A DNA stretch of 37,450 bases from Fidelibacterota bacterium (GCA_049975265.1 JBNGDF010000024.1:1-37450); one strand, 5' to 3'; positions 3,748-20,668 are shown, numbered from the stretch's first letter. The notes: generated from the letters alone by a model not told the origin. Program-made: numbers and translations.

Positions 3748-3760
3748 CTTCGCTCCTTTT

Positions 3761-3793
3761 TAGTATTGAGTTTTGAGATTTGAGTATTTAGAT
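3761..3793. repeat. Degenerate heptamer tandem array, left arm of an inverted repeat flanking the four-helix-bundle gene
   Basis: TATTGAG TTTTGAG ATTTGAG TATTTAG at 3764-3791. Confidence 0.8.
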
Positions 3794-3802
3794 AATTTTT
3801 AG

Positions 3803-4156: not shown

Positions 4157-4190
4157 ATCTCACTACTCAATCCTCGTTACTCATAATCTA
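4157..4190. repeat. Degenerate heptamer tandem array, right arm of the inverted repeat flanking the four-helix-bundle gene
   Basis: CTCACTA CTCAATC CTCGTTA CTCATAA at 4159-4186; its reverse complement matches 3764-3793 at about 21/30 positions by hand alignment. Confidence 0.75.
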
Positions 4191-4874
4191 TTTTAACTTA
4201 ATCTCTCTTGCATAATACCGTTTGGATTGTTCCTCTCGCGGCATTTCGACAAGTTCATCCAGTTCCTTTTCGTATTTTCCATTCTCAATCTCGACAATCC
4301 GCTCTTCCAACTCCAGGCTTTTTTTATTCAGGTAACGCCCATATAGCCGCTGCGCAAGAGTTGCGGCATTGTACTGGACAATTTCAGCCGGACAGCGCAG
4401 GGCGCACAAACCACAACGAATGCAATCAAAGGAGAGGTCTGCTGCTTTGGCGATGTCGCCGCGCTTGAGTGCCTGCACATAATCCATTACCTTGATCTCC
4501 TGGGGACAGGCTTTTGTACAGGTATTGCAGGCGACACAGCGAAAAACCGTCGGAAAGAGAATCTTGATTGTATCCACGTCGGGGGTCAATTCCTTGATAT
4601 CGTAAACCGGTTTTTCCGCCGGTACAAAGGGAATCTGCGCCAGCATCATCCCATCACTAACCACCGTCTGACAGGCTAAGCCGCCCTTCAACTTATAGTC
4701 GCCCTTTTCCCGATAAACCGTGGCACAGGCGCCGCAAAAGCCCTCCCGGCAGCCAACTCCGCGCTTCATCTGAAATCCGGCGTACTCCATCGCCATAATG
4801 ATGGTCGAGCCTTCCGGTACATCATAGGCTTCACCCATGATGAATACTTTCACCATCTTCTGCTTTTCACTCAT
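4188..4874 (-). CDS. Fumarate reductase-associated iron-sulfur subunit (FrdB/TfrB N-terminal-like; [2Fe-2S] + 2x[4Fe-4S])
   Basis: CREGFCGAC...LACQT ([2Fe-2S]); CVACNTCTKACP and CIRCGLCALRCP (two full ferredoxin motifs); next to the flavoprotein. Confidence 0.82.
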   Translation of the reverse strand: MSEKQKMVKVFIMGEAYDVPEGSTIIMAMEYAGFQMKRGVGCREGFCGACATVYREKGDYKLKGGLACQTVVSDGMMLAQIPFVPAEKPVYDIKELTPDVDTIKILFPTVFRCVACNTCTKACPQEIKVMDYVQALKRGDIAKAADLSFDCIRCGLCALRCPAEIVQYNAATLAQRLYGRYLNKKSLELEERIVEIENGKYEKELDELVEMPREEQSKRYYAREIKLK

Positions 4875-5380
4875 TGATAAGCCTCCTTTAAAGCGTTCAA
4901 TCCCGATCTCATTTCGGAATCTTCGCCAGCTGTCATCTTTTTTATTTGCGCTTTAATATCAATAACTATCCGCCTCTTCTGCCTTTCGATTGCTCCGGAA
5001 AATGATTCTCCAAACGTCTGATTATCCTCAATTTCCACCGCCAGAAAATCAATCCTGTCGGGCACCATGAATCCACACTGACGGGCATATTTTAAAATAG
5101 AAAGAATATCCGTCGAGTGGATACTGAATGGTATATGCCCCTTAAAATCCGCCGCGGAGAAGCGGTGAATCGCACCAACCGGCTTCTTACCGGTGATTAT
5201 GGAATCAATGATGATCACCCGTTCATAGCCGTACATCTGATCCAGCAACCCGAATCCCGAATCCGCCGAAGCGATGACATCCCAGCCGCTGAATGCCGAC
5301 CTTAATTGCCTGGCAATGTAGACCCCGATTCCATCGTCGGTCAGCAGATTGTTGCCCAGCCCTATTATTAATACTTTCAC
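4871..5380 (-). CDS. [NiFe]-hydrogenase maturation endopeptidase (HyaD/HycI family)
   Basis: N-terminal IIGLGNNLLTDDGIG, IIIDS and SIHS motifs; GTG start overlaps the mvhD stop. Confidence 0.9.
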   Translation of the reverse strand: MKVLIIGLGNNLLTDDGIGVYIARQLRSAFSGWDVIASADSGFGLLDQMYGYERVIIIDSIITGKKPVGAIHRFSAADFKGHIPFSIHSTDILSILKYARQCGFMVPDRIDFLAVEIEDNQTFGESFSGAIERQKRRIVIDIKAQIKKMTAGEDSEMRSGLNALKEAYQ

Positions 5381-5784
5381 AACGGTGTATATTGAATCTG
5401 ACCCAATTCTCGAATTTCTTCGGTAAACTCATTCACAATTGCGGCAAAGCGTTTTCCCTCCGCCGCCGAAATCCACTCAAGACGGAGGCGTTCCTCGTTA
5501 ATATTCAGGTCAGTCAGCAGCTTCTTTAACAATTTCACCCGTTTCAGCGTCTGATAATTACCGGTCTGATAGTGACAATCGCCCGGATGGCAACCGCCGA
5601 TCAGAACTCCGTCGGCGCCGTTTCTGAAAGCATCCAGTACATGCTCCGGGTCCACCCGACTGGAACACATCAACCGGATGCCAATCACGTTCGGCTGATA
5701 ACTCAACCGGGATGTTCCCGCCAGATCCGCACCCGCCGAGGTACACCATTTACAAAAAAATGCGACTATCTTTGGTTCGAACAT
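5377..5784 (-). CDS. mvhD: F420-non-reducing hydrogenase delta subunit MvhD ([2Fe-2S])
   Basis: FCKWC...GADLAG...RLMCSSRVDP...GADGVLIGGCHPGDCHY...WISAAEG; all conserved Cys present. Confidence 0.95.
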   Translation of the reverse strand: MFEPKIVAFFCKWCTSAGADLAGTSRLSYQPNVIGIRLMCSSRVDPEHVLDAFRNGADGVLIGGCHPGDCHYQTGNYQTLKRVKLLKKLLTDLNINEERLRLEWISAAEGKRFAAIVNEFTEEIRELGQIQYTPL

Positions 5785-5793
5785 AGGTTACCC

Positions 5794-5842
5794 TTGATAT
5801 TGGAAATTGGAAATTTGAAATTAGAAACTCGCTACTCAGTAT
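5794..5842. repeat. Degenerate heptamer tandem array in the hdrA-mvhD spacer
   Basis: TTGATAT TGGAAAT TGGAAAT TTGAAAT TAGAAAC TCGCTAC TCAGTAT in unbroken 7-nt register. Confidence 0.8.
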
Positions 5843-5925
5843 AGTAGAAATCATAGAATCAAATCATTCCGTTTGACTACTAAAGGCTTTCGTTTTTGGA
5901 CCTCACTGATTTTTCTGATTACCAA

Positions 5926-7878
5926 TCACGTTGTTAAAATCGCCTGGACCATTCTATTCAATTGCTCATCTGTAAAATTACGCTGCTGCGCGGCTCCCGA
6001 CGGGCAGGCAGCCGCACAGGCACCACAGGCTTCACAGAGTACTTCGTTCACTTCGACAATCCCTTTCTCCCGGCTGATCTTACGGGCATCATAGGGACAG
6101 ACCGCCACACACAGACCGCAGCCGGAGCAGAGCTCTTCATTAACACCGGTAATGATCGGATCGTGCAACAGGTATTCGTTGGCAAACAGATTGGTGACCA
6201 TCGCCGCCGCTGCCGCCGCCTGGGCAACGGTATCGGGAATGTCCTTCGGCGCCTGGGCACAACCCGCCAGATAGATGCCGGCACTCAGCGATTCCACCGG
6301 ACGGAGCTTCGGGTGAGCTTCTGTTAAAAAGCTGTTTTGATCGATTGAAATTTTCAACAGTTTCGCCAAATCCTCGATCCCCTTCGAGGGACGAATCGCC
6401 ATTGACAGGACCACCAGATCGGCGCGAATCTCCACATTGCTGCCGCTGAGCGTGTCTATCCCACAGACAACCACCTTATCGCCATCCTGGTATAATTTTG
6501 AAACTTTCCCGCGTAAATACAATACTTTATCCTCTTCCTGAGCGCGTTGATAAAACTCCTCATATCCTTTACCCCCGGCACGTACATCCATATAAAAAAT
6601 ATACGGCTGTCCGTCAGGAACGCGGTGTTTATAGAGCATCGCATGTTTGGTCGTGTACATACAGCAAATCTTTGAACAGTAGGGAAAATGATGCTCCGGG
6701 TCCCGGGAGCCCACACATTTGATAAACACAATCTCTCTGGGAATTTTCCCGTCCGAGAGTCGGCGTACCTCTCCGCCGGTGGGACCCGATGAAGAGAGCA
6801 GCCGTTCAAAGGTCAGTCCGTCAATGACATCGGGTATTTTGCCGCTGCCGTATTCACCCATATTTATTAACGGATAAACATCGTAACCGGTGGCAACCAC
6901 GATTGCGCCGACCTCTTCTTCGATATACGAATCCGTTTCCGTAAAATTAATCGCCTCAAAAGGGCAGATCTTCTCACAGACCCGGCATTTTCCCGTTTTG
7001 AAATAGGTACAATTATCGCAATCAATGACCGGTTTATTCGGCACCGCCTGAGGAAAGGGCGTAAAAATAGCTTTACGCTTTCCCAAACCCTGATCGAATT
7101 CCGAAGCTACCTTCTGCGGACATTTCTCGATGCAAAGACCACAGCCGGTGCATTTATCCCAGTCAACATACTTTGCTTTTTGCTTTATTTTTACTTTGAA
7201 ATTGCCGACAAATCCCGAAATATCCGCCAATTCCGAATAGGTCAACAGGCGGATTTGGGGATGCTGGGCGACCTCCACCATCTTCGGTGTCAGGATACAT
7301 TGCGAGCAGTCCAGCGTCGGAAAGGTCTCGGACAGCTGCGCCATGCGTCCCCCGATAGAGGACTGTTTTTCCACCAAAATCACCTCGTAGCCACTGTTGG
7401 CAATGTTCAGCGCGGCTTGAATTCCGGCGATGCCGCCCCCGAGCACCAACGCTTTCCGAACCACCGGTACTTTAATCGGTTCCAGACTCTCGTCCAACAA
7501 AGCTTTCTCCACTACCGATTTGATGATCCTTTTCGCCTTTTCGGTTGCTACCGCCCGATCTTTATGCACCCAACTGCACTGCTCGCGGATGTTGGCAATT
7601 TCACAATTAAAGGGATTCATATCCACGGTCTGAACCGCCAGACGAAAGGTGTTTTCATGCAGGGTGGGAGAACAGGCGGCGATTACAACAGCATCCAACT
7701 TTTCCGACTTGATTTTCTTTTTCACCAGATTCTGACCCGGATCAGAGCACATGTATTTATAATCCTGAATGTAGGCAATGCCCGGATAATCACGCAGGTC
7801 TTCTACGACTTTGGCAACATCCACCGTCGCGGCTATGTTAATCCCGCAGTGGCAGACAAAGACGCCGACTCTCTTCAT
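5926..7878 (-). CDS. hdrA: Heterodisulfide reductase subunit A (canonical length, 650 aa)
   Basis: VGVFVCHCGINIA, NIREQCSWVH, GGGIAG, TFPTLDCSQC, inserted ferredoxin domain, FERL, CVGSRD, CSKICCMYTTK, EAHPKLRPV, GCAQAPKDI, C-terminal 2x[4Fe-4S]. Confidence 0.96.
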   Translation of the reverse strand: MKRVGVFVCHCGINIAATVDVAKVVEDLRDYPGIAYIQDYKYMCSDPGQNLVKKKIKSEKLDAVVIAACSPTLHENTFRLAVQTVDMNPFNCEIANIREQCSWVHKDRAVATEKAKRIIKSVVEKALLDESLEPIKVPVVRKALVLGGGIAGIQAALNIANSGYEVILVEKQSSIGGRMAQLSETFPTLDCSQCILTPKMVEVAQHPQIRLLTYSELADISGFVGNFKVKIKQKAKYVDWDKCTGCGLCIEKCPQKVASEFDQGLGKRKAIFTPFPQAVPNKPVIDCDNCTYFKTGKCRVCEKICPFEAINFTETDSYIEEEVGAIVVATGYDVYPLINMGEYGSGKIPDVIDGLTFERLLSSSGPTGGEVRRLSDGKIPREIVFIKCVGSRDPEHHFPYCSKICCMYTTKHAMLYKHRVPDGQPYIFYMDVRAGGKGYEEFYQRAQEEDKVLYLRGKVSKLYQDGDKVVVCGIDTLSGSNVEIRADLVVLSMAIRPSKGIEDLAKLLKISIDQNSFLTEAHPKLRPVESLSAGIYLAGCAQAPKDIPDTVAQAAAAAAMVTNLFANEYLLHDPIITGVNEELCSGCGLCVAVCPYDARKISREKGIVEVNEVLCEACGACAAACPSGAAQQRNFTDEQLNRMVQAILTT

Positions 7879-8765
7879 AACAGCCCTTTCCTTTTTAAGA
7901 CCAGTCGGGGGTCAATGGCGTGCAGCTGAAAATCATGGAGGTTCGGCTTCAATCCCATCAGCAGTGCCAGCAGCTGGGTAAAATAGAGCACCGGAACAGT
8001 CTGAAACGAGGCATCTGCTTTCCGAATATCCCGCTGCACCTCATCCAGATTGTAATAACAAAGCGGACAGAGTGTAACCATCAGATCGGCACCATTTTTC
8101 ACAGCAGAACCAACGATTTTCCGGGCTCGCTCCCTGACAATTTCAGGTTCGTTGACAATCTGGTAGGAACCGCAGCAGTCCGTCCTGAAGGGGAAATAGA
8201 CGTTTTCACACCCGGCATGGGCTAAAATTTCCTCCATAATCACCGGATCATCGGGCGAATCAATGGCGATTTCCCGGGGTCGAAGCAGCATGCAGCCGTA
8301 GTAGGAAGCGACTTTCAGATTGACATCTTTTTTAATAATGGCAGCCTTTAATTTATCCAGACCGATCTGCCTGATCAGTGTCAAAATATCAATTACCTCG
8401 ACTTCATCACCATAAAATTGGGTATTCTCAAGGTCCATAAACTGATGAATCGTATCCCGTTTTTCCGCATCATTTTTAATGAATTCAATCGCTCGTTTCA
8501 GGGTATTGAAGCACATGGTGCAGAGCGCCAGCAGCTGCCGCCTGCCGCTCTCTTTGGCTTTCACCAACGTCCTGACGGGAGCGACTTGCTGCATCAGATT
8601 GTCCTGGCTCTGGGAAAAACAGACGCCGCAGCAGTACCAGTCTTCCAGCTCCGTCACGGATACACCCAGGCGTTCCAGGACCGCCAGTGCCGAGGTCTCA
8701 AAATTTTTAGCATTGGATTTCAAAGTACATCCCGGGTAGTAGGATAGTTCCATCGGCTTCTCCAT
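7875..8765 (-). CDS. hdrB: Heterodisulfide reductase subunit B (two CCG domains)
   Basis: YPGC...CCG...CTMC and YGC...CCG...CPLC; all 10 CCG-domain cysteines present. Confidence 0.93.
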   Translation of the reverse strand: MEKPMELSYYPGCTLKSNAKNFETSALAVLERLGVSVTELEDWYCCGVCFSQSQDNLMQQVAPVRTLVKAKESGRRQLLALCTMCFNTLKRAIEFIKNDAEKRDTIHQFMDLENTQFYGDEVEVIDILTLIRQIGLDKLKAAIIKKDVNLKVASYYGCMLLRPREIAIDSPDDPVIMEEILAHAGCENVYFPFRTDCCGSYQIVNEPEIVRERARKIVGSAVKNGADLMVTLCPLCYYNLDEVQRDIRKADASFQTVPVLYFTQLLALLMGLKPNLHDFQLHAIDPRLVLKRKGLL

Positions 8766-8768
8766 GAC

Positions 8769-9182
8769 CTAAAGAATCGTTTTTCTAAAATTACCGATCA
8801 GTGCAATCTGCGGCAGTTTTTTCCTTAATTTTGTATCAATTTTACAAAGATTGCCATGCTCGAAATCGCTGCGCAGGACAATCTGGCGCAAGCCCTCCAT
8901 CACTTTCGCAATATCCACGCCGCGGGGACATTTTACTGTGCAGGCGATGCAGGCGGCGCAAATCCAGGGCGTTTCCGACGTTATTAGTTCGTCTATAAAC
9001 CCCAGCTGCACTTTCCGAATTACCTGATGCGGCGGAATATCCATGAACTCTACCGCAGGGCAAGCCGCCGAACAGTTGCCGCACTGGAAACAGGCATAGA
9101 CATTGACACCGGAAATATTCCGTAGTTGGTCAATCTGATCACAGCTGACTCGGTGTGCACTGATCGTTTGATTTTTACTCAT
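8769..9182 (-). CDS. hdrC: Heterodisulfide reductase subunit C
   Basis: CFQCGNCSAACP and WICAACIACTVKCPRG; directly upstream of hdrB. Confidence 0.92.
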   Translation of the reverse strand: MSKNQTISAHRVSCDQIDQLRNISGVNVYACFQCGNCSAACPAVEFMDIPPHQVIRKVQLGFIDELITSETPWICAACIACTVKCPRGVDIAKVMEGLRQIVLRSDFEHGNLCKIDTKLRKKLPQIALIGNFRKTIL

Positions 9183-9185
9183 GAG

Positions 9186-10649
9186 TCAATCCCTCACTAA
9201 CGTTTGAATTACTTCCCGTTGGGCATTGTGAATGGTGACAATCAGGGGCATTTGTCCCGGCAGGGAGTGCGTCGCGCAGGCAAAACAGGGATCGTACGCC
9301 CGAAAAGCCATCTCGACCATATTCAGGATACCGTCATCTACCTTGCCTTTTTTTATCAGCCTGCGGGCGGCGCGCTCGATGGACATACAGATTGCCGCCG
9401 AGTTGTTTGTCGTCGCAACGATCAGATTCACGTCGGTTACACGACCCTTTGAATCGGTTTTGTAGTGGTGATAGAGTGTACCCCGGGGCGCCTCGACAAC
9501 GCCGATACCTTCGGAAGGTATTTCGCTGGGAATCGTCCTGATATCCGGTGACAGGATTTCCGGATCATTTGCCAATTCTTTGAACCGTTCGGCGGCGTAC
9601 AGTACCTCCACCAGACGCGCCCAGTGATAGGCTAACGTATGGTGCGCCGGTTTCGTCCCCAGAGTTGCAAACATTTTCTCAAATTCAGCCTGGGCAAGTG
9701 GCGTCGCCATCCCATCGGCAGCGTTCAATCTCGCCAGTGGCGCTACCCGATAAACACCGCTCTTCTTTCCATCGCTAAATCCCTGCCAGCCGATCTTTTT
9801 CAGATAGGTAAATTTCACATAGCTCCAGGACTCCACGCGCTCCTCGATATGCCTGAGATAATCATGGGGCTTAAATTTTACAAATTCTTCACCGGTCGGC
9901 GTTACGACCCGGATATTGCCGTCATAAAGATTGACGCAATTCTTTTCATCCACGAGTCCCATATAATATGTTTCATGGCGATAGATGTCACCCATAATCA
10001 AATCCAGATACTCCCGGTTTGCCAAGACGATGTCGCTAAAGGCTTGCAGTGCCAGTTGTGCGAAAGCGATCATTTCATCAGCCAGCTGCCGGTACTCTTC
10101 GGCGTCTTCCGGCTTGACCCCTTTGGAAACGCCGCCCGGCAGGTTGCAGACCGGATGGATCACCCGCCCGCCCTGTTTTTCAATCACTGCCCGGACTTTG
10201 CGACGGATAGCGATGACCTGACCGCCGATTTCCATGCCGACTTTTCCCAGCACTCCCAGAATATTGCGCTGCTCTTTCGGCGCCTTCGGTCCGACGATGA
10301 AATCCGGTCCGCCTAGGTAGAAAAAATGCAGCACGTGATCTTCAAATATAAAAGCCGAATTGATCAGTTCGCGGATTTTTTTCGCCGCCGGCGGCGGCTC
10401 CACCCGGTAGAGATCGTCGAGGGCTTTGCCGGATGCCATGTGATGTGTCGTCGGACAGACGCCGCAGATCCGGGGCGTAATGCGCGCCAGCTCTTCTGCC
10501 ATACGACCGCGGCAAAATTCCTCGAAACCGCGCAGCTCCGGAACCTGAAAATAAGCCTGCTGCACATCACCTTCCGCATCGAGAAAAATATCAATCTTAC
10601 CGTGCCCTTCCAGACGAGTTATCGGATCAATTTTTATTCGCGTGCCCAT
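9186..10649 (-). CDS. mvhA: [NiFe]-hydrogenase large subunit, group 3c (MvhA)
   Basis: TRLEGHG, L1 RICGVC, EAPRGTL, L2 RAYDPCFACATH plus a cleavable C-terminal extension; hdr/mvhD context. Confidence 0.93.
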   Translation of the reverse strand: MGTRIKIDPITRLEGHGKIDIFLDAEGDVQQAYFQVPELRGFEEFCRGRMAEELARITPRICGVCPTTHHMASGKALDDLYRVEPPPAAKKIRELINSAFIFEDHVLHFFYLGGPDFIVGPKAPKEQRNILGVLGKVGMEIGGQVIAIRRKVRAVIEKQGGRVIHPVCNLPGGVSKGVKPEDAEEYRQLADEMIAFAQLALQAFSDIVLANREYLDLIMGDIYRHETYYMGLVDEKNCVNLYDGNIRVVTPTGEEFVKFKPHDYLRHIEERVESWSYVKFTYLKKIGWQGFSDGKKSGVYRVAPLARLNAADGMATPLAQAEFEKMFATLGTKPAHHTLAYHWARLVEVLYAAERFKELANDPEILSPDIRTIPSEIPSEGIGVVEAPRGTLYHHYKTDSKGRVTDVNLIVATTNNSAAICMSIERAARRLIKKGKVDDGILNMVEMAFRAYDPCFACATHSLPGQMPLIVTIHNAQREVIQTLVRD

Positions 10650-10663
10650 AAATTTATCCTTAT

Positions 10664-11632
10664 TTAAGACCGATCATGAAATTTGACTTTCAGCGATGAT
10701 GCCAGACTGAACATGTAAAATAAACCGGCGGGATCAATAACTGACTCCGCAAAGGCTTCGATTTTCCGCTCATCTTCACTCTCGAATTGCGAACTGAATC
10801 CCGCTAAAAATTTGGCACCCTGATCGTGAACGGCTTTCGTCGGACCGAAACAGCCGCGGCAGGGCATATTGGCATTGATACAGCGCTCGCCGCAGCCCGA
10901 ACGGGTCGCCGGTCCCAGACAGACGACACCCTCCGCCAGAAAACATTTATCAGCGGGAATGTTCGCCAGCGAAATGCGCTTAATATCCATGATTTTCAGC
11001 TTATCAGGTTTGGAGTCATTGCGCAGGCAACTGTCACAGAGCGATTTATCCGGCGCAAGGATAGTACCCTTTGCCGGTAATTTACCTGACAGTATCGCCG
11101 TAATCGCTTCCATAATCAGATCCGGTGGCGGTGCACATCCCGGCACATAGTAATCCACCTCAATCACCTGATCCAAAGCCCGCACCTCTGAATGCATCTC
11201 CGGCAATTCCAGCTCGCCCTCCTCGATGTGCGTAACTGCTTCCGGAAAAACATTATCCGGATTGTTGACAGACGGAACATTCCGGTAAACCGTCTCAAAC
11301 AGCTGCCGGAGGGAAGATAAATTCGCCAAGCCGGGGATTCCGCCCAGATGGGCACAGCTACCGAAAGCAACAATCAGACCGGATTTACGACGCAACAGTC
11401 TGACCCACTCCTCCTGCTCCGCTGTCCTCACTGCACCATTAATAAAAGCAACCGCTATCGAGCCGTCAGCCATGGTTTCAATATCACTCCTTTTGAAATC
11501 CATCGCCACCGGCCAGAGCACGATATCCACGGCGTCTACCACTTTCAGAATGTCTTCCGCCAGATCAACCACCGCCTCTTCGCAGCCCCCGCAGGAGGCG
11601 CACCAGTAAAAGGCAACTTGCGGTTTATCCAT
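10664..11632 (-). CDS. mvhG: [NiFe]-hydrogenase small subunit (MvhG)
   Basis: CASCGGC, FGSCA..GGIPGL, VPGCAP, CDSC, CLGPATRSGC and PCRGCFGP. Confidence 0.93.
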   Translation of the reverse strand: MDKPQVAFYWCASCGGCEEAVVDLAEDILKVVDAVDIVLWPVAMDFKRSDIETMADGSIAVAFINGAVRTAEQEEWVRLLRRKSGLIVAFGSCAHLGGIPGLANLSSLRQLFETVYRNVPSVNNPDNVFPEAVTHIEEGELELPEMHSEVRALDQVIEVDYYVPGCAPPPDLIMEAITAILSGKLPAKGTILAPDKSLCDSCLRNDSKPDKLKIMDIKRISLANIPADKCFLAEGVVCLGPATRSGCGERCINANMPCRGCFGPTKAVHDQGAKFLAGFSSQFESEDERKIEAFAESVIDPAGLFYMFSLASSLKVKFHDRS

Positions 11633-11656: not shown

Positions 11657-12541
11657 TTAATGGCATTCCTCAATCTTTTTACCTATTCCGATTTTTCCAT
11701 TCACTTCCCAGGTGTGCTTTTCAAGCCCGTAGGCAACAGTCATGAGTTGTGTAAAATAAACAACCGGGATATTTCTAAAATCCGGATACTTATGCTTGAT
11801 ATCATTTTGCCGATTATCGAGGTTGAAAGCGCACAGCGGGCAGGATGTGATCACAATATCGGCACCACTCCTTTGGGCATCCGTCAGGATGTCGTACCCC
11901 AGATTTACCACGGTATCTTTATTGTTAAGGGTCAAATAACTGCCGCAACACTTGTGCCTGCAGCGCCACTCAACCGCCTCGGCGCCAAGTGAACGGATAA
12001 AATCCTCCATAATTGTCGGGGTTTCATGATGATCGATTCCGATATCTTTCGGACGCAGCAACATACAGCCGTAATAGCCGGCGACTTTGAGATTTTTTAA
12101 CGGATTTACAACCTTACTCTGAATTTTGTCAAATCCGATCTCCCTTAACAGACTGAGAAAATGGATCAGCTCCACCGAACCGTCATAATCAATCTCGTTT
12201 GACATAAAATCATTGACAACTTTGAGATCATCCGGACTGTTTTTCATACGATTGTTGGATCGTTTAAGAGTATTATAACACATAGAACATAACGTCAACA
12301 GGCGTTTATTATCCTTTACAATGCCCTCTTGATTCATCTCTAAAACCCGTACAAAATTGCGAATTGGCGCCACATGGTGAATGATATCGTCCGTAGCCAA
12401 CGAGGAGACGACGCCGCAGCAGTTCCAGCGGGGGATTTCCACAAACTCAATACTTAGCTGTTTCGCAGCAGCGATAGCCGATTCTTCAAATTTCTTGGCA
12501 AAGGATTTCAGGGTACAGCCGGGAAAATAGGGGATTTTCAT
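11657..12541 (-). CDS. hdrB: Heterodisulfide reductase subunit B, second copy
   Basis: FPGC...CCG...CSMC and YGC...CCG...CPLC; clear paralogue of 7875-8765. Confidence 0.93.
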   Translation of the reverse strand: MKIPYFPGCTLKSFAKKFEESAIAAAKQLSIEFVEIPRWNCCGVVSSLATDDIIHHVAPIRNFVRVLEMNQEGIVKDNKRLLTLCSMCYNTLKRSNNRMKNSPDDLKVVNDFMSNEIDYDGSVELIHFLSLLREIGFDKIQSKVVNPLKNLKVAGYYGCMLLRPKDIGIDHHETPTIMEDFIRSLGAEAVEWRCRHKCCGSYLTLNNKDTVVNLGYDILTDAQRSGADIVITSCPLCAFNLDNRQNDIKHKYPDFRNIPVVYFTQLMTVAYGLEKHTWEVNGKIGIGKKIEECH

Positions 12542-12556: not shown

Positions 12557-12961
12557 TCAGGATACCAGCTTCCGGTTGGCGGCGATAATCGCAATGGGTG
12601 GTAATTCCCGCAATTCATCGGCAGAAATGCTGTTCAGGTCTACGCGGTCAATGGATTGCCGTAAATTAACGAGTCGGAGGGCTTCCGCCACTTTGGAGAC
12701 ATCCAGACCGCGCGGGCAGCGGACGGTGCAGGTATTGCAGGTCGCACATAACCACATTGTTTTCGATTCCAGCACATCCTCCTGACCTAGCAGAACTTTC
12801 CGCATTAATTGCGACGGCATAATGTCCATATCGTCAACAAAGGGACAACCGCCGGAACAGGTTCCGCACTGATCGCACAGCGTAATCACCTCCCCGCTCA
12901 ATTCCGCAATCAGTTCGAAGAAATCCACAGACTTATCATCTAGAGTAATTTTTTCGGACAT
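12557..12961 (-). CDS. hdrC: Heterodisulfide reductase subunit C, second copy
   Basis: CDQCGTCSGGCP and WLCATCNTCTVRCPRG. Confidence 0.92.
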   Translation of the reverse strand: MSEKITLDDKSVDFFELIAELSGEVITLCDQCGTCSGGCPFVDDMDIMPSQLMRKVLLGQEDVLESKTMWLCATCNTCTVRCPRGLDVSKVAEALRLVNLRQSIDRVDLNSISADELRELPPIAIIAANRKLVS

Positions 12962-15340
12962 CTATCCACGCTCCTGTTTGCCATCACCGGGATTCATCAT
13001 GACGTAATCGTAATCGGCGATTTCTTTGACCAGCTGATTGATCCGCTCAATAAAAGCGGTCATCATCCCCGACGCAAGTTCAGAAAACACAATTTGTTTG
13101 CCCGTTATTCCCATATCCTGAAGTTGCCGGGCGGCGGATTGAATGCTATCCCGGATACACTGCCGACTCCAGGGAAACCGGGAACTCTTTTCCGGACAAT
13201 CGCCGATCAATACACCATCGGCGCCCTGCTGAATTGTGTACAAAATCAATTGCGGAGTGATCCTCGCCGCACTGGGAATTCGGATGATCCGAACGTCAGC
13301 CGAATAACTCATTTTGCGGATACCCACCGCATCCGCCAGACGATAAGTGCAGGCATCATCGGCAAAAACGATAATTCGTTGCTGAGATACCCTTTTTCGT
13401 GACAGAGCCCCCTGCACCGCCGCATACAGCTGCGCATTGGTATAGCCGTGCAAATCGAGGGCTTCCGTCGGGCAGCTGGCGATACAAGCCCCACAGCCAA
13501 CACAGAGAGCCGCGATGACCTCAGCCCGGTTTTCCGTATTGATCGTAATGGCATTTTTCGGGCATGCCGAAAGGCATTTTCCGCATCCATCGCAGAGTTC
13601 ACTATGCACGAATGCCAGAATCGGATCAACTTCAAACTCTTTTTGAGCCAGCGCACCGATTACCCTCGAAGCGGCGGCACTGGCTTGCGCAACTGTATCG
13701 GGGATATCCTTCGGACCCTGCGCCGTTCCCGCTAAAAAGACACCTTCCACCAGCGTATCCACCGGTCTGAATTTCGGATGCGCTTCCTGAAAAAATCCAT
13801 CGGAACTTCTAGCCAGCTTTAGCAGATCAGCGATTTTCTCCGACGCTCTACTCAGCTGAATACCAGTCGATAAAACGATTAAATCAAACTCCGCTTCAAT
13901 AATCTTCCGGGAAAGAGTATCCTCAACGTGTATCACCAGCTTCTTATTCACCGGATTTTCACTCAACTCCGCAACCTTCCCGCGGATAAATTTGATACCC
14001 ATCGTCTGGGCTTTTTTATAGTATTCTTCATAGCCTTTCCCGAAAGCGCGAATATCGGTATAAAAAATATAGATATCGGTTTTCGGGCGCGCCTGCTTTA
14101 AAAGCGAGGCTAACTTAATGGCATACATACAGCAGACCCGGGAACAGTATTCCCGTCCGGTCTGTTCGTCCCGGGAACCGACACACTGAATAAACCCTAC
14201 CCGTTTACCCACCTCCCGGGGTGGCGGGTTTTCGGTAATATGGTCGACAATCCGCTCCATCTCAAGCCCGGTCACCACATTCCTATATTTACCGTAACCA
14301 AAAACCGGCTTCTCCCGCGGATCAATAATATCATACCCTGTGGCGACAATAATAGTATCAACGGTAAAATGAATGTCTTTTGGCTGCTGGGAAAAATCGA
14401 TCGCCTCCTGCGGACACACCTCTGCACATCGGTGACAGTCGCCGCCATTGAAAAACAGGCAGGCGTCCGAATCAATCAGATATTTATATGGAATTGCCAG
14501 CGCCGCAGGAATATAAATCGCCTTGCGGTTCAGAATTCCCTGCTCCCACTGATTCGGCACTGTCACGGGGCAAGCCACCGTGCACTTTTCACAGCCCAGA
14601 CACTGATCCATATCGATGCTGTCTTTAATATACCGGGGATGCTGCCTGGCATGAATCTCAAAATGCAGGCGATGTCCGGCAACATTTTCCACGGTCGTAC
14701 TGGTCAAAAGGCGGATACCGGGATGTTCCTGAACCTCAGCCATTTTGGGTGAAATAATACAGGCGGCACAGTCTTCAGTGGGAAAGGTCTTGGTAAGCCG
14801 CGCCATATTGCCGCCGATACTGGAATCCTTCTCAATCAGGGTTACCTCCTTACCGGCTGCCGCCAGGTCCAGTGAGGCTTGAATTCCGGCGACGCCGCCG
14901 CCAATTACCAGCACCCGGTTTCCCATGGCGATTTTCTTTTTATCCAATGGGTAATTATGTCGCACTTTCGCCAGTGAGGCAAGCAGCAGATCGATCGCCT
15001 TTTCAGTCGCAACGTCAGGATCATTGCGATGAGTCCAGGAACAGTGCTCCCGAAAATTTGCCATCTCCAGAACATAGGGATTCAGACCCGCTTTTTCGAG
15101 TGTCGCCTTAAAGGTCTTTTCATGAAACTGCGGAGAGCAGGAGGCAATTACGACCCGGTCCAGCCGGTGCTCCTGAACATCCTCAATGATCAATTTCTGA
15201 CCGGCGCCGGAGCACATGTTGGAGTGCTCTCTCAGTACAGCAATATTATCCTGATCCCGGATTGCCTCGGTTACCTTCTGAAGGTCTACGACCTTCGAAA
15301 TATTTCCGCCGCACTGACATAAATAGACACCAATTTTCAT
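12962..15340 (-). CDS. hdrA: HdrA fused to a degenerate C-terminal MvhD-like domain
   Basis: IGVYLCQCGGNIS, GGGVAG, TFPTEDCAAC, CVGSRD, CSRVCCMYAIK, EAHPKFRPV; the last ~145 aa align with MvhD (IIVFADDACTY...GADGVLIGDC). Confidence 0.92.
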   Translation of the reverse strand: MKIGVYLCQCGGNISKVVDLQKVTEAIRDQDNIAVLREHSNMCSGAGQKLIIEDVQEHRLDRVVIASCSPQFHEKTFKATLEKAGLNPYVLEMANFREHCSWTHRNDPDVATEKAIDLLLASLAKVRHNYPLDKKKIAMGNRVLVIGGGVAGIQASLDLAAAGKEVTLIEKDSSIGGNMARLTKTFPTEDCAACIISPKMAEVQEHPGIRLLTSTTVENVAGHRLHFEIHARQHPRYIKDSIDMDQCLGCEKCTVACPVTVPNQWEQGILNRKAIYIPAALAIPYKYLIDSDACLFFNGGDCHRCAEVCPQEAIDFSQQPKDIHFTVDTIIVATGYDIIDPREKPVFGYGKYRNVVTGLEMERIVDHITENPPPREVGKRVGFIQCVGSRDEQTGREYCSRVCCMYAIKLASLLKQARPKTDIYIFYTDIRAFGKGYEEYYKKAQTMGIKFIRGKVAELSENPVNKKLVIHVEDTLSRKIIEAEFDLIVLSTGIQLSRASEKIADLLKLARSSDGFFQEAHPKFRPVDTLVEGVFLAGTAQGPKDIPDTVAQASAAASRVIGALAQKEFEVDPILAFVHSELCDGCGKCLSACPKNAITINTENRAEVIAALCVGCGACIASCPTEALDLHGYTNAQLYAAVQGALSRKRVSQQRIIVFADDACTYRLADAVGIRKMSYSADVRIIRIPSAARITPQLILYTIQQGADGVLIGDCPEKSSRFPWSRQCIRDSIQSAARQLQDMGITGKQIVFSELASGMMTAFIERINQLVKEIADYDYVMMNPGDGKQERG

Positions 15341-15421: not shown

Positions 15422-15637
15422 TTAAAACTGGATCTGCGCCCGATGCTTTCCGTCCCCTTCATCCATACAAAACAGCAATGTGCGTCCGGTCCTCTCACAC
15501 CAGGCTGCGATGTCTTTCGGAAAAGAGGGACAATCCGCTAAAACCTCCACCATTTCGCCCGCCGGAATCTCTTTGGCTTTTGCCGCAATTTTCAGGACCG
15601 GCTCGGGACACTTTAAACCTGTCAAATCCAACTCCAT
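15422..15637 (-). CDS. tusA: TusA/SirA family sulfur carrier protein
   Basis: 71 aa; LDLTGLKCPEP (CPxP motif), EVLAD and DIAAWC; GGAG RBS. Confidence 0.9.
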   Translation of the reverse strand: MELDLTGLKCPEPVLKIAAKAKEIPAGEMVEVLADCPSFPKDIAAWCERTGRTLLFCMDEGDGKHRAQIQF

Positions 15638-15656
15638 GGTAGTCTCCTCTTAATGG

Positions 15657-16013
15657 TTAAAATGAAAATGTCAGGGTCGCATCTTTGGCTTCGTTCAGGA
15701 AGGTTGTGGCTCCGACAATTTCGACACCTTCCCGGAAATCTTCAGCCCTTAGATCCTTCGCCTCCAACGCCAATTCGCAGACGAAGATTTTGCCACCCAA
15801 TGCTCTCAATCCCTCGTACAATTCAACAATATCCGGCAATCCTTTGGCGCCTCGCAGCGCTTCCAATTTGCCTTTCAACATAGTCGGCGCTCCGGCTGGC
15901 GTAAAGAAAATGATTACTTCATCTCCCAGAGCCGCCGCCGAAGACCCGATAATCATCGGTGGAAAAATATTCGCACCTTCTGCTCCATTACAGGTGATTG
16001 CCACTTTTGCCAT
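15657..16013 (-). CDS. DsrE/DsrF/DrsH-like protein
   Basis: AAALGDEVIIFFTPAG, GGKIFVCELAL and GVEIVGATTFL; start moved to ATG 16013 (GAGGAG RBS), giving 118 aa. Confidence 0.82.
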   Translation of the reverse strand: MAKVAITCNGAEGANIFPPMIIGSSAAALGDEVIIFFTPAGAPTMLKGKLEALRGAKGLPDIVELYEGLRALGGKIFVCELALEAKDLRAEDFREGVEIVGATTFLNEAKDATLTFSF

Positions 16014-16053: not shown

Positions 16054-16758
16054 CTATAGCGGGGGAACTTCATACGTGTAGAGATCGTCGGGATCGGTCA
16101 GCATTTTCATGCGACGTCTGGCATCGACATGCTCCGGATCCAGTTCCACCACCTTTTTTAAATGCTTAATGGCATAATCCTGATTATCTACACCCAGATA
16201 CGCCAGCGCCAGATGATAATGCACCGAGGTGACATTGGGATCCTCTTTCAGGATCGCCTTCAGACATTGAATCGCCTCTTCGTATTTGCCCGACGCCTTA
16301 TAGACAATCGCCAACTGATAGTACCCCAGCGTACCGGCAGAACTATTTTCGGTCAAACGTTTATAGGCTTCAATACTGCGTTTGAACTGACCTTTGTGAT
16401 AATGAGCCAGTCCTTCCCAGTAGGACGACATATATAACTCCGGCTCGATTTCCTGAATGTGATGAAAAACATTAATCGCATCGCTGAATCGGGTTGCCCT
16501 GAAGTATGAAATCCCCAGGCGATAAAGCGCAAAGGTATAATCGGGTTTGGCTTTTATTACTTTTTCAAATTCTGTAATGGAGTTTTTTATATCACCCAGG
16601 ACATAATAGAGCTCACCTAACTTAACCCGCAGGTCGTGTTGTTCGGGATTTTCCTTCAGAATCTCCTGCAGTTTCACAATCGCTTTCCCGATTTTTCCCT
16701 GCATTTCATACCCCAAAGCCTCCCGGCGCAGCTGTTCCAGATCACGCATAAAATGCAT
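16054..16758 (-). CDS. Tetratricopeptide repeat protein
   Basis: About six 34-aa TPR-like units (LGELYY..G...SI..FEKVI...P, HLALAY..., A...LKKVVELDP); no signal peptide. Confidence 0.88.
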   Translation of the reverse strand: MHFMRDLEQLRREALGYEMQGKIGKAIVKLQEILKENPEQHDLRVKLGELYYVLGDIKNSITEFEKVIKAKPDYTFALYRLGISYFRATRFSDAINVFHHIQEIEPELYMSSYWEGLAHYHKGQFKRSIEAYKRLTENSSAGTLGYYQLAIVYKASGKYEEAIQCLKAILKEDPNVTSVHYHLALAYLGVDNQDYAIKHLKKVVELDPEHVDARRRMKMLTDPDDLYTYEVPPL

Positions 16759-16796
16759 CCTTTCTAAATGAAAAATAACCGTTTAAGCTATCGATG

Positions 16797-17357
16797 TCAT
16801 TGATCGAGGGAATATTTTTCCACCCCCAGTTTATAAACATCGTTACCCCGTACGTCATTAGCGACAAATACCGGAAAATTCACAACCTGCAGTTCCCGAA
16901 TCGCCTCCGCTCCCAAATCTTCATAGGCAATGATCCGGGCGGATTGAACCGCCTGAGCCGTGACCACCGCAGCCCCACCAATAGCCGCCAGATAGACGGC
17001 TCTGTTTTTAACCATCGAATCGACGACAGCCTGACTGCGTGGTCCTTTACCGATCATTGCTTTTAAACCGGCATCCATCAGTGCCGGAGCATAGGGGTCC
17101 ATGCGGTAACTGGTAGTAGGACCCGCCGAGCCGATGGGTTTCCCCGGTCTGGCAGGAGAGGGACCGACATAATAAATCACTGCTCCCACCGGATCAAAGG
17201 GCAGCTCCTTCCCCGCTTGTAATAGCTCCACCAGCCGTTTATGCGCCGCATCCCGGGCTGTGTAAACAATCCCACTCAGTAACACTTTATCACCAACATT
17301 CAACTGTTCCAGCATTTCCGACGTCAACGGTGTCTGTAGTTGTATCTCCTTTGCCAT
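16797..17357 (-). CDS. Class I Fe-S fumarate hydratase, beta subunit
   Basis: GDKVLLSG..YTARDAAHKR, YYVGPSP, GPTTSYRMD and MIGKG; start taken at ATG 17357 (MAKEIQ, GAGAGG RBS) because the track's extra 88 aa overlap the alpha gene. Confidence 0.9.
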   Translation of the reverse strand: MAKEIQLQTPLTSEMLEQLNVGDKVLLSGIVYTARDAAHKRLVELLQAGKELPFDPVGAVIYYVGPSPARPGKPIGSAGPTTSYRMDPYAPALMDAGLKAMIGKGPRSQAVVDSMVKNRAVYLAAIGGAAVVTAQAVQSARIIAYEDLGAEAIRELQVVNFPVFVANDVRGNDVYKLGVEKYSLDQ

Positions 17358-17368
17358 TTTCAACCTCT

Positions 17369-18217
17369 CTATTCTATTACCGCAGTCTCGTGACGATGAA
17401 CATGACAGTCCACATTGACCGCTACCGGCATAGAGGCAATGTGACAGGGCATGGCAAGAATCTGAACCGCAAGGGCAGTAGTCCGACCACCCAATCCCTG
17501 CGGACCGATTCCCAGCCGATTGATCCGTTCCAATATTTCTTCCTCCACTTGCGCCCATTTCGGATCGGGATGTTTCTCCGTCAGAGGGCGCAGCAGCGCC
17601 TTCTTCGCCAGCAGCGCACATCGCTCAAAACTGCCGCCGATGCCGACCCCCACCACCACCGGTGGACAGGGATTGCCGCCGGAACGCTTAATCCGGTCCA
17701 CAACAAAATCCTTCACACCCTCAATGCCATCCGCCGCCTTCATCATCTTCACTTCGCTCATATTCTCCGCTCCGCCGCCCTTTGGTACCACAGTGATCTT
17801 CAATGTTTCACCGGGTACAAGGTCGGTATAGATCAGCGCCGGAGTGTTATCCCTGGTGTTTTTTCGTTCAATCACCGGATCGTCCACCATCGATTTCCGT
17901 AAAAAGCCGTCCTGATACCCCTGCCGGACACCTTCATTGATTGCCTCATAAAAATCACCACCCACCAGATGAATATCCTGCCCCAATTCGACGAATACCA
18001 CCGCCACTCCTGTGTCCTGGCAGAGAGGCATCTGCTCCTGCGCCGCCATTTTGTGATTCTCCAGCATCAGCGCCAGAATATCCTTTGCCGTCGGCGATTC
18101 TTCCTTTTCCATAAAATACCGGATTCGATCAACAACATCCGGACTGGCGTAATAGTTGGCATCAATACACAACTTTTTCACGATCGGTATAACCTGTGAA
18201 ACCTGAATCTCCTTCAA
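17369..18217 (-). CDS. Class I Fe-S fumarate hydratase, alpha subunit
   Basis: CQDTG, KGGGAEN, NPCPP, GPQGLGG, PCHIAS and CHVHR; probable TTG start at 18217 after GGAGGG (track start 18232). Confidence 0.9.
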   Translation of the reverse strand: MKEIQVSQVIPIVKKLCIDANYYASPDVVDRIRYFMEKEESPTAKDILALMLENHKMAAQEQMPLCQDTGVAVVFVELGQDIHLVGGDFYEAINEGVRQGYQDGFLRKSMVDDPVIERKNTRDNTPALIYTDLVPGETLKITVVPKGGGAENMSEVKMMKAADGIEGVKDFVVDRIKRSGGNPCPPVVVGVGIGGSFERCALLAKKALLRPLTEKHPDPKWAQVEEEILERINRLGIGPQGLGGRTTALAVQILAMPCHIASMPVAVNVDCHVHRHETAVIE

Positions 18218-18232
18218 TGATTCACCCTCCAA

Positions 18233-18626
18233 ATAATTATCGTTGAAAATAAAAAATGGCTTAAAAAATAATTCAAGGAATCCTTCGTATTTTAAATGGA
18301 AAACACCATTCAGAAACTGGGATTAAGGAATTTCCTCATTTCAATGGAATACTGCGCCAAAAAACCAACTGTTCCCACTACCCTCGAAAATTTTAACGCA
18401 ACCCTGTTAATTCATTTTTCGCGAAATTTCTCGTTAGTCCAATTAATTCCCTTATTGCTAAAATAGAATCTTTTGTAAAAAATCCAAAAGGAAAATTTGA
18501 TCTTTTTAATTTTTACCGGTGCAAAAAATTATTTATTTAACGTGCTTACAATTTCTTCCGACGATCCGGTCGCTACATCACCAACTCCCGGGCTGCTCAT
18601 ATATTCGGCATTTCCATTCCTGACCC
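18233..18626 (-). promoter_or_regulatory. AT-rich upstream control region of the 17.6 kb operon
   Basis: ~390 bp non-coding, A/T-tract-rich gap, the largest in the window; individual promoter elements not pinned down. Confidence 0.55.
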
Positions 18627-19499
18627 CTATTGCAACGACGCCACCAGAGTCCGACCTATTTCTGCCGGATTCGAAGTCACCCTGATGCCGGCTTTTTCCA
18701 AAGTCTCCATTTTTTCCCTTGCCGTTCCCTGACCGCCGGCGATGATAGCACCGGCGTGCCCCATCCGACGCCCCGGAGGCGCGGTTATACCCGCAATAAA
18801 TGCAACCACCGGCTTGGTAAAATGCTTCTGGATATAAGCAGCCGCATCCTCCTCGGCGCTTCCGCCAATCTCGCCGATCAGCACTACCGCCTCCGTCTGG
18901 TCATCATCCTGAAATAACGGTAACAGATCGGTAAAGATACTTCCCACAATCGGATCCCCGCCGATGCCGATACAGGTGGATTGACCCAGTCCGAGTTGCG
19001 TGATCTGATGGACCGCTTCATAGGTGAGAGTTCCGCTGCGGGAAATAACACCCACCGAACCCCTCTGATGAATAAACCCCGGCATAATGCCGATTTTCGA
19101 CCTCCCCGGCGCGATGATTCCCGGACAATTGGGTCCAATCAATCGCGATTTCGACCGTTCCAAAACATACTTGACCTTGATCATGTCCTGCGTCGGAATT
19201 CCCTCGGATATACAGACAATCAATTCCAACCCTGCGTCAATGGACTCGAGAATGGCATCGGCAGCAAACCGGGGCGGGACGAAAATCACACTGGCATTCG
19301 CGCCGGTTTCCGCTACCGCCTCCCGGACAAAGTCAAAAATCGGCAGACCGTGTTCCGATTTTCCCCCTCCCTTTCCGGGCGTCACACCGCTCACGACCTG
19401 CGTCCCGTATTCCAGCATCCGAGCCGTGTGAAATGCCCCCTCTCTGCCGGTAATTCCCTGCACCATCACCCGGGTGTTTTCATTGATCAAAATACTCAT
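18627..19499 (-). CDS. sucD: Succinate--CoA ligase subunit alpha
   Basis: [30 protein letters not shown] and phospho-His motif RMGHAGA. Confidence 0.97.
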
Positions 19500-20668
19500 T
19501 ACTTCACTCCCCTGTTTGCTGCCTTGACAACCAATTTCGCCGCCCGGTCAAAGGAGTCGGCGACGGTAAAATTCAGGGCGGAATCTTCCAAAATTCTGCG
19601 CGCCTCTTCGGCATTGGTACCCTCAAGCCGGATTACGACGGGCACAGAGACCACCAGGCTTTGTAACGCTGTAACGATTCCCCGGGCAACCCGGTCACAG
19701 CGGACAATCCCGCCAAAAATATTGATCAGTACGGCATTCACATTTTCATCGCTCATTAAAATTTCGAAACCGTTGGCGACCGTATCCGGCGAAGCCACCC
19801 CGCCGACATCCAGAAAATTAGCCGGTTCGCCGCCATGCAACTTAATGATATCCATCGTCGCCATCGCCAGACCGGCACCGTTGACCATGCAACCGACATT
19901 TCCGCCCAAACGGACATAATTCAGGTGATTTTCCGACGCTTCCAGCTCCGCCGGATCTTCTTCACTGAAATCCCGTAATTCCAGAACCTGCGGATGCCGA
20001 AACAGGGCGTTGTCATCAAAATTGAGTTTTGCATCCAGCGCCATCAGCGCACCCGAGCGGGTTACAACCAGAGGATTGACCTCAACCAGCGATGCATCAC
20101 TGCGCCGAAAAACATTGTACAGGGACTGTAAAAACACCACCCCCTTTTTCCTCTGTTCGCCCTCCAGCCGCAATGCCGACACAAGCCGTTGATACTGATA
20201 CGCCTGCAACCCGAAACCGGGCAGCGCATATTCTTTGGCGATCTTTTCCGGCATCTCCGCCGCCACCTCTTCGATCTCCATACCACCTTCCGTGGAAACC
20301 ATCATCACCGGACGGGCTCTATTTCTATCAATCACTACTCCCGCATACAACTCCCGCTCAATATCCACCGCTTCTTCGATGAACAGCCGGTTAACGATTT
20401 TACCTTCCGGACCGGTCTGTCTGGTAATCAGCGGCTTGCCCAGCATATTTTCAATAATCTGTCGGGCTTCGGACTCTGAACGGGCAATTTTTACACCCCC
20501 GCCCTTACCGCGCCCACCGGCATGTATCTGGGCTTTGACAACACAGGGATAGCCCAGCAGACCGGCGGCATTCAGCGCCGCTTCCATCGAAAAAGCCGGA
20601 ATCCCCCGCGGTACCGGCACATGAAATCTGTTCAGGATATCCTTCGCCTGATACTCATGAATTTTCAT
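19499..20668 (-). CDS. sucC: Succinate--CoA ligase (ADP-forming) subunit beta
   Basis: [56 protein letters not shown] and [10 protein letters not shown]. Confidence 0.97.

Follow-up and report, generated by a model that had tools for sequence, protein, structure and literature searches.

TusA and DsrE proteins encoded beside hdr genes have been described for the sHdr-LbpA pathway of sulfur oxidation by Tanabe et al. (2024, PMC11094781), in whose account the CPxP cysteine of TusA and the cysteine of DsrE3 carry polysulfide-derived sulfur, with transfer from DsrE3 to TusA; the second cysteine of the E. coli and Aquifex TusA proteins is described there as dispensable for sulfur binding. In the YeeE-YeeD thiosulfate uptake system of E. 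coli, C13 and C39 of YeeD (TsuB) are reported to be both essential in vivo, and it was suggested that this two-Cys protein processes bound sulfur inside one molecule (PMC11073785). For Cloacimonadota from Ace Lake, Williams et al. (2021, PMC8542988) described both Hdr with TusA, a thiosulfate sulfurtransferase and a sulfur transporter, and a Tfr-Hdr-Mvh set. The residues E356 and K409 were named as HdrA flavin residues in the account of PMC12054007, and for tubeworm symbionts a direct passage from Hdr to a bacterial Tfr-like enzyme had already been put forward (PMC6315080). TusA/DsrE beside hdr, Hdr with TusA and YeeE, and Tfr-Hdr-Mvh are thus already in print.

The locus considered here lies in a window of 37,450 nucleotides (the whole stretch of DNA that was analysed) on contig C24 of a 2.86-Mb genome, 95.3% complete, and places a dsrE-tusA pair inside an hdrABC-frd operon. 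No description of such an arrangement was found in the open-access literature; the supplements of PMC8542988 and PMC6315080 may bear on it. Nothing on the present pair was found in PMC6092417, PMC12142623, PMC5296606 and 10.1101/2024.09.26.615249.

Organization of the locus

The minus strand carries, in order, sucC-sucD-fumA-fumB-TPR-dsrE-tusA-hdrA1-hdrC1-hdrB1-mvhG-mvhA-hdrC2-hdrB2-hdrA2-mvhD-hycI-frdB-(four-helix gene)-frdA-malic enzyme (Table 1). The TPR gene is followed after 40 bp by dsrE, which 19 bp separate from tusA; a further 81 bp lead to hdrA1, with hdrC1 adjoining at 0 bp and hdrB1 after 15 bp, all on one strand, so that the placement of the pair directly before hdrA*CB in the original prediction is borne out. 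The dsrE start at 16013 has a strong ribosome-binding site and gives a length in agreement with the homologues; a longer start at 16073 was rejected, as it overlaps the TPR gene and the homologues comprise 117-118 aa. A scan for promoters and terminators gave no excess over shuffled sequence (11 versus 13.9; 10 versus 13.7).

The TPR protein is a constant member of these operons (fumB-TPR-X), whichever Hdr module or carriers come next, and is possibly an assembly factor. The gene between frdB and frdA encodes a four-helix bundle (23S rRNA IVP/bAvd-like) and is also present in the related genome G111 (labels G and L denote surveyed genomes and loci). A methylmalonyl-CoA mutase is present in the genome and a genome-wide profile search yielded no ATP-citrate lyase above cut-off, so that carbon fixation by the rTCA cycle is unsupported and the operon more likely serves a succinate/propionate-type fermentation.

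Table 1. Features of the hdr-frd operon, in window coordinates.
Feature	Position	Strand	Assignment
upstream operon part sucC-sucD-fumA-fumB-TPR protein	16054..20668	(-)	
TPR protein	16054..16758	(-)	
dsrE-like sulfur carrier, 118 aa	15657..16013	(-)	PF13686/PF02635; predicted DsrE fold
tusA-like carrier, 71 aa	15422..15637	(-)	PF01206, E 2.7e-18; sole TusA of the genome
HdrA1, 792 aa	12962..15340	(-)	HdrA core fused to MvhD-like domain without [2Fe-2S] cysteines
fused MvhD-like domain of HdrA1	12962..13384	(-)	
HdrC1, short, 2x[4Fe-4S]	12557..12961	(-)	family matches
HdrB1, two CCG domains	11657..12541	(-)	below SdhE/MfrE and methanogen HdrB cut-offs
second, separable module mvhG-mvhA-hdrC2-hdrB2-hdrA2-mvhD (canonical)-hycI	4871..11632	(-)	family matches
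frdB (228 aa, no CCG domain), four-helix-bundle gene, frdA	2074..4874	(-)	frdA TfrA-like, below cut-off
four-helix-bundle gene	3803..4156	(-)	
malic enzyme, last gene of the operon	585..2042	(-)	

The carrier proteins and their cysteines

All six cysteines named in the original prediction are present in the translated genes: Cys 10 (CPEP), Cys 36 (ADCP), Cys 47 (AWC) and Cys 57 (FCM) in TusA, Cys 8 (ITCNG) and Cys 79 (VCEL) in the DsrE-like protein. TusA belongs to its family by a score of 66 bits against PF01206 (cut-off 28.6), by the CPxP motif and by a SirA-like fold; its model (pLDDT 96.7) superimposes on E. coli TusA with a TM score of 0.89, the closest structures are 3LVJ/3LVK, and 8J4C is among the fold matches. 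The DsrE model (pLDDT 97) matches 3MC3 and 2QS7, and both PF13686 and PF02635 score over their cut-offs, which places the protein in the DsrE superfamily; against the DsrE2 equivalog NF047629 it reaches 48 bits (cut-off 210).

In 70 close TusA homologues Cys 10 is kept in 69, Cys 36 in all 70, Cys 47 in 67 and Cys 57 in 50. A further 43 GTDB loci from two other lineages all have CPxP and DCxxF, with the WC type in 29 and the Cys 57 type in 42, while among 62 remoter single-domain TusA representatives CPxP and DCxxF occur together in 43 and the Cys 57 type in 6. In the DsrE family (best 120 of 282 homologues) Cys 79 is found in 120/120 and Cys 8 in 50/120; a cysteine at position 8, 37 or 38 occurs in 104 of 118, the position of the second cysteine not being fixed. 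In these alignments, only TusA Cys 10, TusA Cys 36 and DsrE Cys 79 are invariant in the clade, and TusA Cys 47 and Cys 57 vary by lineage. Conservation of the additional cysteines, on which the original prediction relied, thus holds for Cys 36 and not for Cys 47, Cys 57 or DsrE Cys 8. Cys 36 follows the CPxP cysteine at a distance of 26 residues and is preceded by an aspartate, Asp 35 (70/70), which is the YeeD/TsuB-type pattern; it is the WC-type Cys 47 that aligns with the second cysteine of E. coli and Aquifex TusA. A housekeeping TusA was rejected, as no member of the TusA family was matched in 31 of the order's 42 genomes. The top profile matches also include proteins P0192-P0202, of 500-820 aa, with 3-6 tandem TusA-like stretches.

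The two Hdr modules

HdrA1 is much closer to 5ODC (668 bits) than to 6TJR (146 bits), which we take to be sHdrA, and is closer to 8RVU as well. Its residues E362 and K409, the equivalents of E356/K409, are invariant in 23 HdrA1-type proteins, as expected for a bifurcating HdrA. The special feature of HdrA1 is its fused MvhD-like domain, in which one of the four positions that we take to be the [2Fe-2S] ligands of MvhD is occupied. At most one of the four is kept in 30/30 HdrA1-type fusions, with or without TusA, as against all four in 40 of 41 free MvhD proteins, and under any choice of ligands no more than two of five MvhD cysteines are left in the fused domain. The MvhD [2Fe-2S] entry point is therefore lacking in HdrA1 and is found in the free MvhD beside HdrA2, which points to reduced ferredoxin as the feed of HdrA1. 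The cluster-less fusions precede hdrC, occur across bacteria and archaea and keep conserved motifs of their own; the match of HdrA1 to the ferredoxin:heterodisulfide reductase model NF041778 reaches into the MvhD-like domain, and free MvhD gives no match to it. The fusion likely marks a class of Frd-linked HdrA fed by ferredoxin.

HdrB1 keeps all ten CCG cysteines. It reaches 158 bits against SdhE/MfrE and 151 against methanogen HdrB, below both cut-offs, and HdrB2 likewise scores about equally with the two. Against TIGR03288 (HdrB) the two HdrB proteins of the window reach 151 and 144 (cut-off 345), and against NF004900 (TfrA) the score is 310 (cut-off 718). With HdrB and TfrA below cut-off, an FrdB devoid of a CCG domain and no ComA in the genome, the locus does not conform to the CoM-CoB-dependent Hdr/Tfr of methanogens.

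Sulfur genes in the window and the genome

Among the 36 window ORFs scanned, no match was found to dsr, apr, sox, rhodanese or lipoate-binding families, and to this extent the absence of a sulfur context, as originally claimed, is correct for the window. It does not extend to the genome, which has one membrane rhodanese and, at C8:24804-27212 (G000, L257), upstream of nqr genes, a cluster of arsR, a flavoprotein, a DsrC-family (TusE) protein with one C-terminal cysteine, and DsrE2. The flavoprotein, for which Pfam gives Pyr_redox_2 only, is presumably sqr-like; such a gene occurs in 19 of the 42 genomes of the order. The 95.3%-complete genome has no PF01077 match (DsrAB/Sir) and no AprA above cut-off, and its DsrC-family protein with one C-terminal cysteine does not add up to a Dsr pathway, which comprises DsrAB and a two-Cys DsrC. 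The single GCV_H match precedes a gcvP-like gene and leaves the genome without a lipoate-binding LbpA of the sHdr kind. Neither YeeE (PF04143), the partner of YeeD/TsuB, nor a periplasmic rhodanese importer nor ComA, the marker of CoM synthesis, was found genome-wide. Elsewhere, at G000:C20:15078-20437 (L258), Group 4-type hydrogenase/complex I-like genes stand right after Fer4_22 and NAD-binding (sulfhydrogenase beta/gamma-like) genes.

Distribution of the pair in Frd-linked Hdr operons

A survey anchored on HdrB1 comprised 71 loci, 50 of which were checked at genome level; the genomes are related and incomplete, so that the counts are not independent and carry no statistical claim. The pair is missing from most homologous loci, an outcome that the original prediction had named as refuting it: frdA or frdB is present in 53 of the 71 loci and the pair in 4, and among the 19 frd loci in which the DNA upstream of hdrA-hdrC-hdrB is visible the pair stands there in 2 and is absent in 17. 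At genome level, TusA of the present clade occurs in 9 of 50, a generic TusA only in 20 and no match in 21, which leaves 41/50 without the pair; four records without clade TusA, from WOR-3, consist of one chromosome each. Clade TusA is found in 7 of 18 genomes with a cluster-less HdrA1 and in 2 of 32 others.

Of the 42 genomes in the order of the window's bacterium, 20 encode FrdA, 7 a TusA of the clade and 11 a TusA of whatever type; among the 13 near-complete genomes with FrdA, 9 are devoid of TusA altogether. The pair accompanies 6 of 9 HdrB1-type genomes (full matches of at least 56% identity, G143 included) as against 0 of 12 HdrB2-only genomes. Three Hdr1-type genomes are negative: an N gap interrupts the TPR-hdrA1 interval of G143, which was rejected as a clean loss of the pair; G083 has a canonical MvhD; and the contig of G072 ends in hdrA.

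The operon family amounts to a natural deletion series. L001, L002 and L072 have dsrE-tusA-hdrA1C1B1-frdBA without the Mvh-Hdr2 block, and in G001 and G002 (identical with G155, 87%, and G087, 96% complete), which retain the pair, just one CCG protein is encoded genome-wide. Conversely, G111 (same genus, 94%) and G066 (98%) have TPR-mvhGA-hdrC2B2A2-mvhD-hycI-frdBA, the block dsrE-tusA-hdrA1C1B1 being missing as a whole; G103 likewise combines a Mvh-linked Hdr with Frd in the absence of the pair, and none of these three genomes encodes TusA. In G119 the order is tusA-hdrA1C1B1-frdBA with no dsrE at the locus. Double-Hdr loci with the pair are the window, L005, L120 and G003/G203 (G203 = G003 = L003, a same-family relative); the double-HdrB frd locus L019 belongs to a genome without a TusA match, and none was obtained either in the Bipolaricaulota G040 and G046, each of which encodes one CCG protein. 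Frd is thus found with Hdr1 alone, with the hydrogenase-linked Hdr2 alone, or with both (compare also L254 and L256). In view of this series and of the single-CCG genomes, the two Hdr modules are interchangeable alternatives for Frd, not two halves of a thiol cycle, and the pair is an optional accessory of the Hdr1 module, not of Hdr2. One-CCG genomes exist for both Hdr types, many of them without TusA, and this suggests that Hdr is wired directly to Frd, with no disulfide shuttle in between.

The home cassette and the history of the pair

A second survey started from DsrE and covered the best 80 of 174 metagenome loci. Clade tusA follows dsrE in 61 of the 69 loci whose flank is long enough, and the next labelled gene is mvhD or hdrA in 51 of 58, with or without HdrB. 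Thirty-one loci offer at least 6.5 kb of downstream DNA: hdrA' (~425 aa)-hdrA'' (~562 aa) with FdhB-like genes is present in 27, any HdrA in 30, HdrB in 4 and frdA in 1 (24, 27, 3 and 1 of 28 after de-replication). The usual home of the pair is therefore an HdrB-less dsrE–tusA–mvhD–hdrA′–hdrA″–fdhB-like cassette. Unbiased GTDB draws recovered the TusA clade in 15/201 genomes of an Aminicenantes class and 32/201 Cloacimonadota; in the 43 new loci mvhD follows clade tusA directly in 39/39 with enough flank. The association of the pair with Hdr-type genes, as originally proposed, is therefore far beyond chance. Among the 68 loci with DNA upstream of dsrE, 27 have an ArsR-family gene directly 5' of it; such a gene is lacking at the window locus. 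A nifU-like gene is near the pair in some loci (L112, L198).

In longer cassettes (L182/L183, L186/L187, L196) a porin, rhodaneses and YeeE are present in addition, which gives the clade a sulfur-import context, and these cassettes resemble the Stygibacter cluster as presented by Williams et al. (PMC8542988). The Stygibacter genome G008 has the window's TusA clade before mvhD-hdrA', and YeeE of the full cassette adjoins a generic TusA of its own (L182, L186, L151). In L182/L183 (Cloacimonadota) the full cassette comprises dsrE, generic tusA, yeeE, rhodaneses and porin together with hdrA'A''-fdhB-like-hdrL-flx-hdrC genes, and an in-frame stop at a conserved position splits mvhD, consistent with selenocysteine. 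A third HdrA/MvhD context is provided by G182 (L195, G182:C171), where a pair of the window's type comes after hdrL-hdrA-mvhD-mvhG-mvhA in a locus devoid of hdrB.

DsrE of the window is 66-75% identical to cassette DsrE, and both carriers belong to the same clades. The window's genome has neither the split HdrA pair nor FdhB-like subunits: its only HdrA genes are the two of the window, and its best FdhB-like match is 19% identical. In a DsrE+TusA tree of 64 rows (without 15 overlapping loci, each set of identical pairs collapsed into one, midpoint root), a single starred clade (100/96) unites the six pairs grafted before hdrA1 with L195 and L197, and it lies inside the cassette-type pairs; the long branches of L186, L196 and L197 may stem from fixed-length trimming. 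In an HdrB tree (88 rows, quick mode) all eight TusA-adjacent HdrB1 proteins fall into one 14-row subclade with five pair-less ones and G143, a composition that fits one gain and several losses; L004 lies inside this subclade and is devoid of clade TusA. Consistent with the midpoint-drawn trees, the pair was apparently moved once from the cassette to the front of hdrA1C1B1. On one contig (L186/L187, G025:C10) a fum-frd-hdrCB operon is joined directly to a whole dsrE-tusA-mvhD-hdrA'A''-fdhB-yeeE cassette, a possible model for the origin of the graft.

With 96% identity to L001 and L002 (pS 0.91), TusA is the most conserved of 13 operon genes; DsrE reaches 92% and 86%, HdrA1 81% and HdrB1 78-79%. 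The synonymous sites of tusA are saturated, which indicates strong purifying selection. A decaying remnant is rejected on these grounds, and the conservation of both proteins shows the pair to be functional.

Possible roles of the pair

Among the roles considered, a persulfide relay is the one we tentatively prefer, as a possible function of an optional add-on that would offer sulfane sulfur to the ferredoxin-fed Hdr1 as a second acceptor; this part of the original prediction is kept as the best reading. DsrE Cys 79 would take sulfane sulfur from polysulfide, perhaps made by the separate sqr-like/TusE/DsrE2 cluster, and by analogy with other DsrE3/TusA pairs would hand it to TusA Cys 10. HdrA1, fed by reduced ferredoxin, would normally pass electrons through HdrC1/HdrB1 to FrdB-FrdA with no low-molecular-weight disulfide involved, and Hdr2 would take H2 through Mvh, either module feeding FrdBA directly. 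TusA-SSH may then dock on the Hdr1 complex and be reduced to H2S, more likely at the HdrA/MvhD side, since this is the sole part common to the cassette, the graft and G182; Cys 36 would resolve the Cys 10 persulfide into a Cys 10-Cys 36 disulfide, to be re-reduced subsequently. The relay has to contend with several points. The contact between TusA/DsrE and Hdr is putative; the sequence leaves the direction, sulfur reduction or oxidation, unfixed, and a related cluster was read as sulfur oxidation in PMC8542988; the genome has no YeeE or periplasmic rhodanese importer; 11 of 18 cluster-less-HdrA1 genomes, and L004, do without clade TusA; G182 has the pair after hdrL-hdrA-mvhD-mvhGA, and G119 has tusA without dsrE. 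The anaerobic Frd operon makes reduction the likely direction, as opposed to the oxidation of sHdr. A stricter version is doubtful: the two-Cys TusA would itself serve an HdrA-type enzyme of bacteria as a genuine protein substrate, and the ferredoxin-fed HdrA1-C1-B1 complex, with its cluster-less MvhD part, would switch between fumarate (FrdBA) and TusA-borne persulfide as terminal acceptor. If it were true, fermenters would possess an Hdr substrate independent of CoM/CoB, and HdrA/MvhD would be identified as the place of docking in the widespread cassette without HdrB. As the contexts of the pair share only HdrA/MvhD, the locus would offer a minimal system for protein-bound sulfur reduction, consisting of two small soluble proteins and HdrA1C1B1.

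The patchy occurrence of the pair (7/42 in the order) and the ArsR-family gene directly before dsrE in 27/68 loci would also suit a protective or regulatory function, in which persulfides are stripped from or buffered around the cysteine-rich HdrA/MvhD under sulfur stress with no catabolic substrate involved, and DsrE4-type proteins were proposed to detoxify reactive sulfur in the account of PMC11094781; we regard this as unlikely, as arsR is lacking at the window locus and the tight, fixed place before mvhD/hdrA across phyla suggests a specific partner, not general stress relief. The invariant two-Cys pair of TusA, the ten CCG cysteines of HdrB1, an Hdr1 without hydrogenase entry, the common loss of pair and Hdr1 in G111, the missing ComA and the reported co-purification of AqTusA with sHdrB1/B2/C1 (PMC11094781) could be taken to mean that TusA is a protein dithiol donor (Cys 10/Cys 36) at HdrB1, replacing CoM-SH/CoB-SH in a thiol:fumarate reductase HdrB1C1-FrdBA, with another thiol system re-reducing the TusA disulfide. 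Such a donor would be obligatory, yet the pair is absent at 17/19 frd loci, the clade in 11/18 Hdr1-type genomes, and HdrB from all but 4 of the 31 long home-cassette loci, which renders the proposal rather improbable. A passenger role, in which a rearrangement brought the pair under common transcription and its partners are other proteins, for example those of the sqr-like/TusE/DsrE2 cluster, draws on Hdr-Frd systems that do without it and on the frequency of the sqr-like gene (19/42); the place before hdrA1 is, however, kept in several genera, in two families and in a bin of Cloacimonadota, and G111 lost the pair together with Hdr1 and retains the sqr-like gene, so that this is improbable. 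Sulfur supply for Fe-S assembly in HdrA/MvhD-rich operons finds a precedent in TusA proteins that accept sulfur from IscS (3LVJ/3LVK), as well as in the high Fe-S demand of the operons and the nifU-like gene in L112 and L198. We consider it quite improbable, given that no TusA at all is encoded in 9 of 13 near-complete genomes with Frd-Hdr in the order and that the full cassette has external-sulfur importers (YeeE, rhodaneses) among its annotated neighbours; the narrower proposal of the original prediction, help in building the non-cubane clusters, fails on the same genomes and on the HdrB-less home cassette. The remaining original idea was that TusA/DsrE replace CoM/CoB between two HdrB sites, Hdr2 reducing them with H2 and Hdr1 oxidising them for fumarate reduction. 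Four double-Hdr loci with the pair (window, L005, L120, G003/G203) and the absence of a CoM synthesis marker agree with it, but G001 and G002 keep the pair with one CCG protein, G111, G066 and G103 run Frd with the Mvh-linked Hdr alone and no TusA, TusA is missing from the one-CCG genomes G040 and G046, and the double-HdrB L019 is in a TusA-free genome. With single-CCG genomes that keep the pair, Frd served by either module, and a home cassette devoid of HdrB, both the shuttle, which is thereby most improbable, and non-cubane assembly are contradicted.

Comparison with known systems

The likeness to sHdr-LbpA as outlined in PMC11094781 lies in TusA and DsrE beside hdr, the CPxP cysteine, a single active cysteine in DsrE and the relay logic from DsrE to TusA. 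In contrast to that system, HdrA1 with its 792 aa is of the methanogen type, the genome has no LbpA beyond the gcv-linked GcvH, and the sHdr gene order is not found. Compared with the Ace Lake Cloacimonadota, in which two separate clusters were read as sulfur oxidation and rTCA (PMC8542988), the window has the carriers inside the Frd-Hdr operon, no importers, and a genome without an ATP-citrate lyase match. The methanogen MvhAGD-HdrABC and TfrAB complexes (5ODC, 8RVU; NF004900/NF004898) share homologous HdrA/B/C, Mvh and a TfrA-like protein with the locus, the E356/K409 equivalents being kept; unlike them, the bacterium has no ComA, the CCG half of TfrB has no counterpart in its FrdB, relatives manage with one HdrB, and the MvhD part of HdrA1 is cluster-less. 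E. coli YeeD, with C13/C39 and D38 as described in PMC11073785, corresponds to C10/C36 and D35 in the same fold, whereas no YeeE is encoded in the window's genome. Carriers of the same clade are found in the uncharacterised HdrBC-less dsrE-tusA-mvhD-hdrA'-hdrA''-fdhB-like cassette, in place of which the pair of the window serves an HdrABC-Frd operon.
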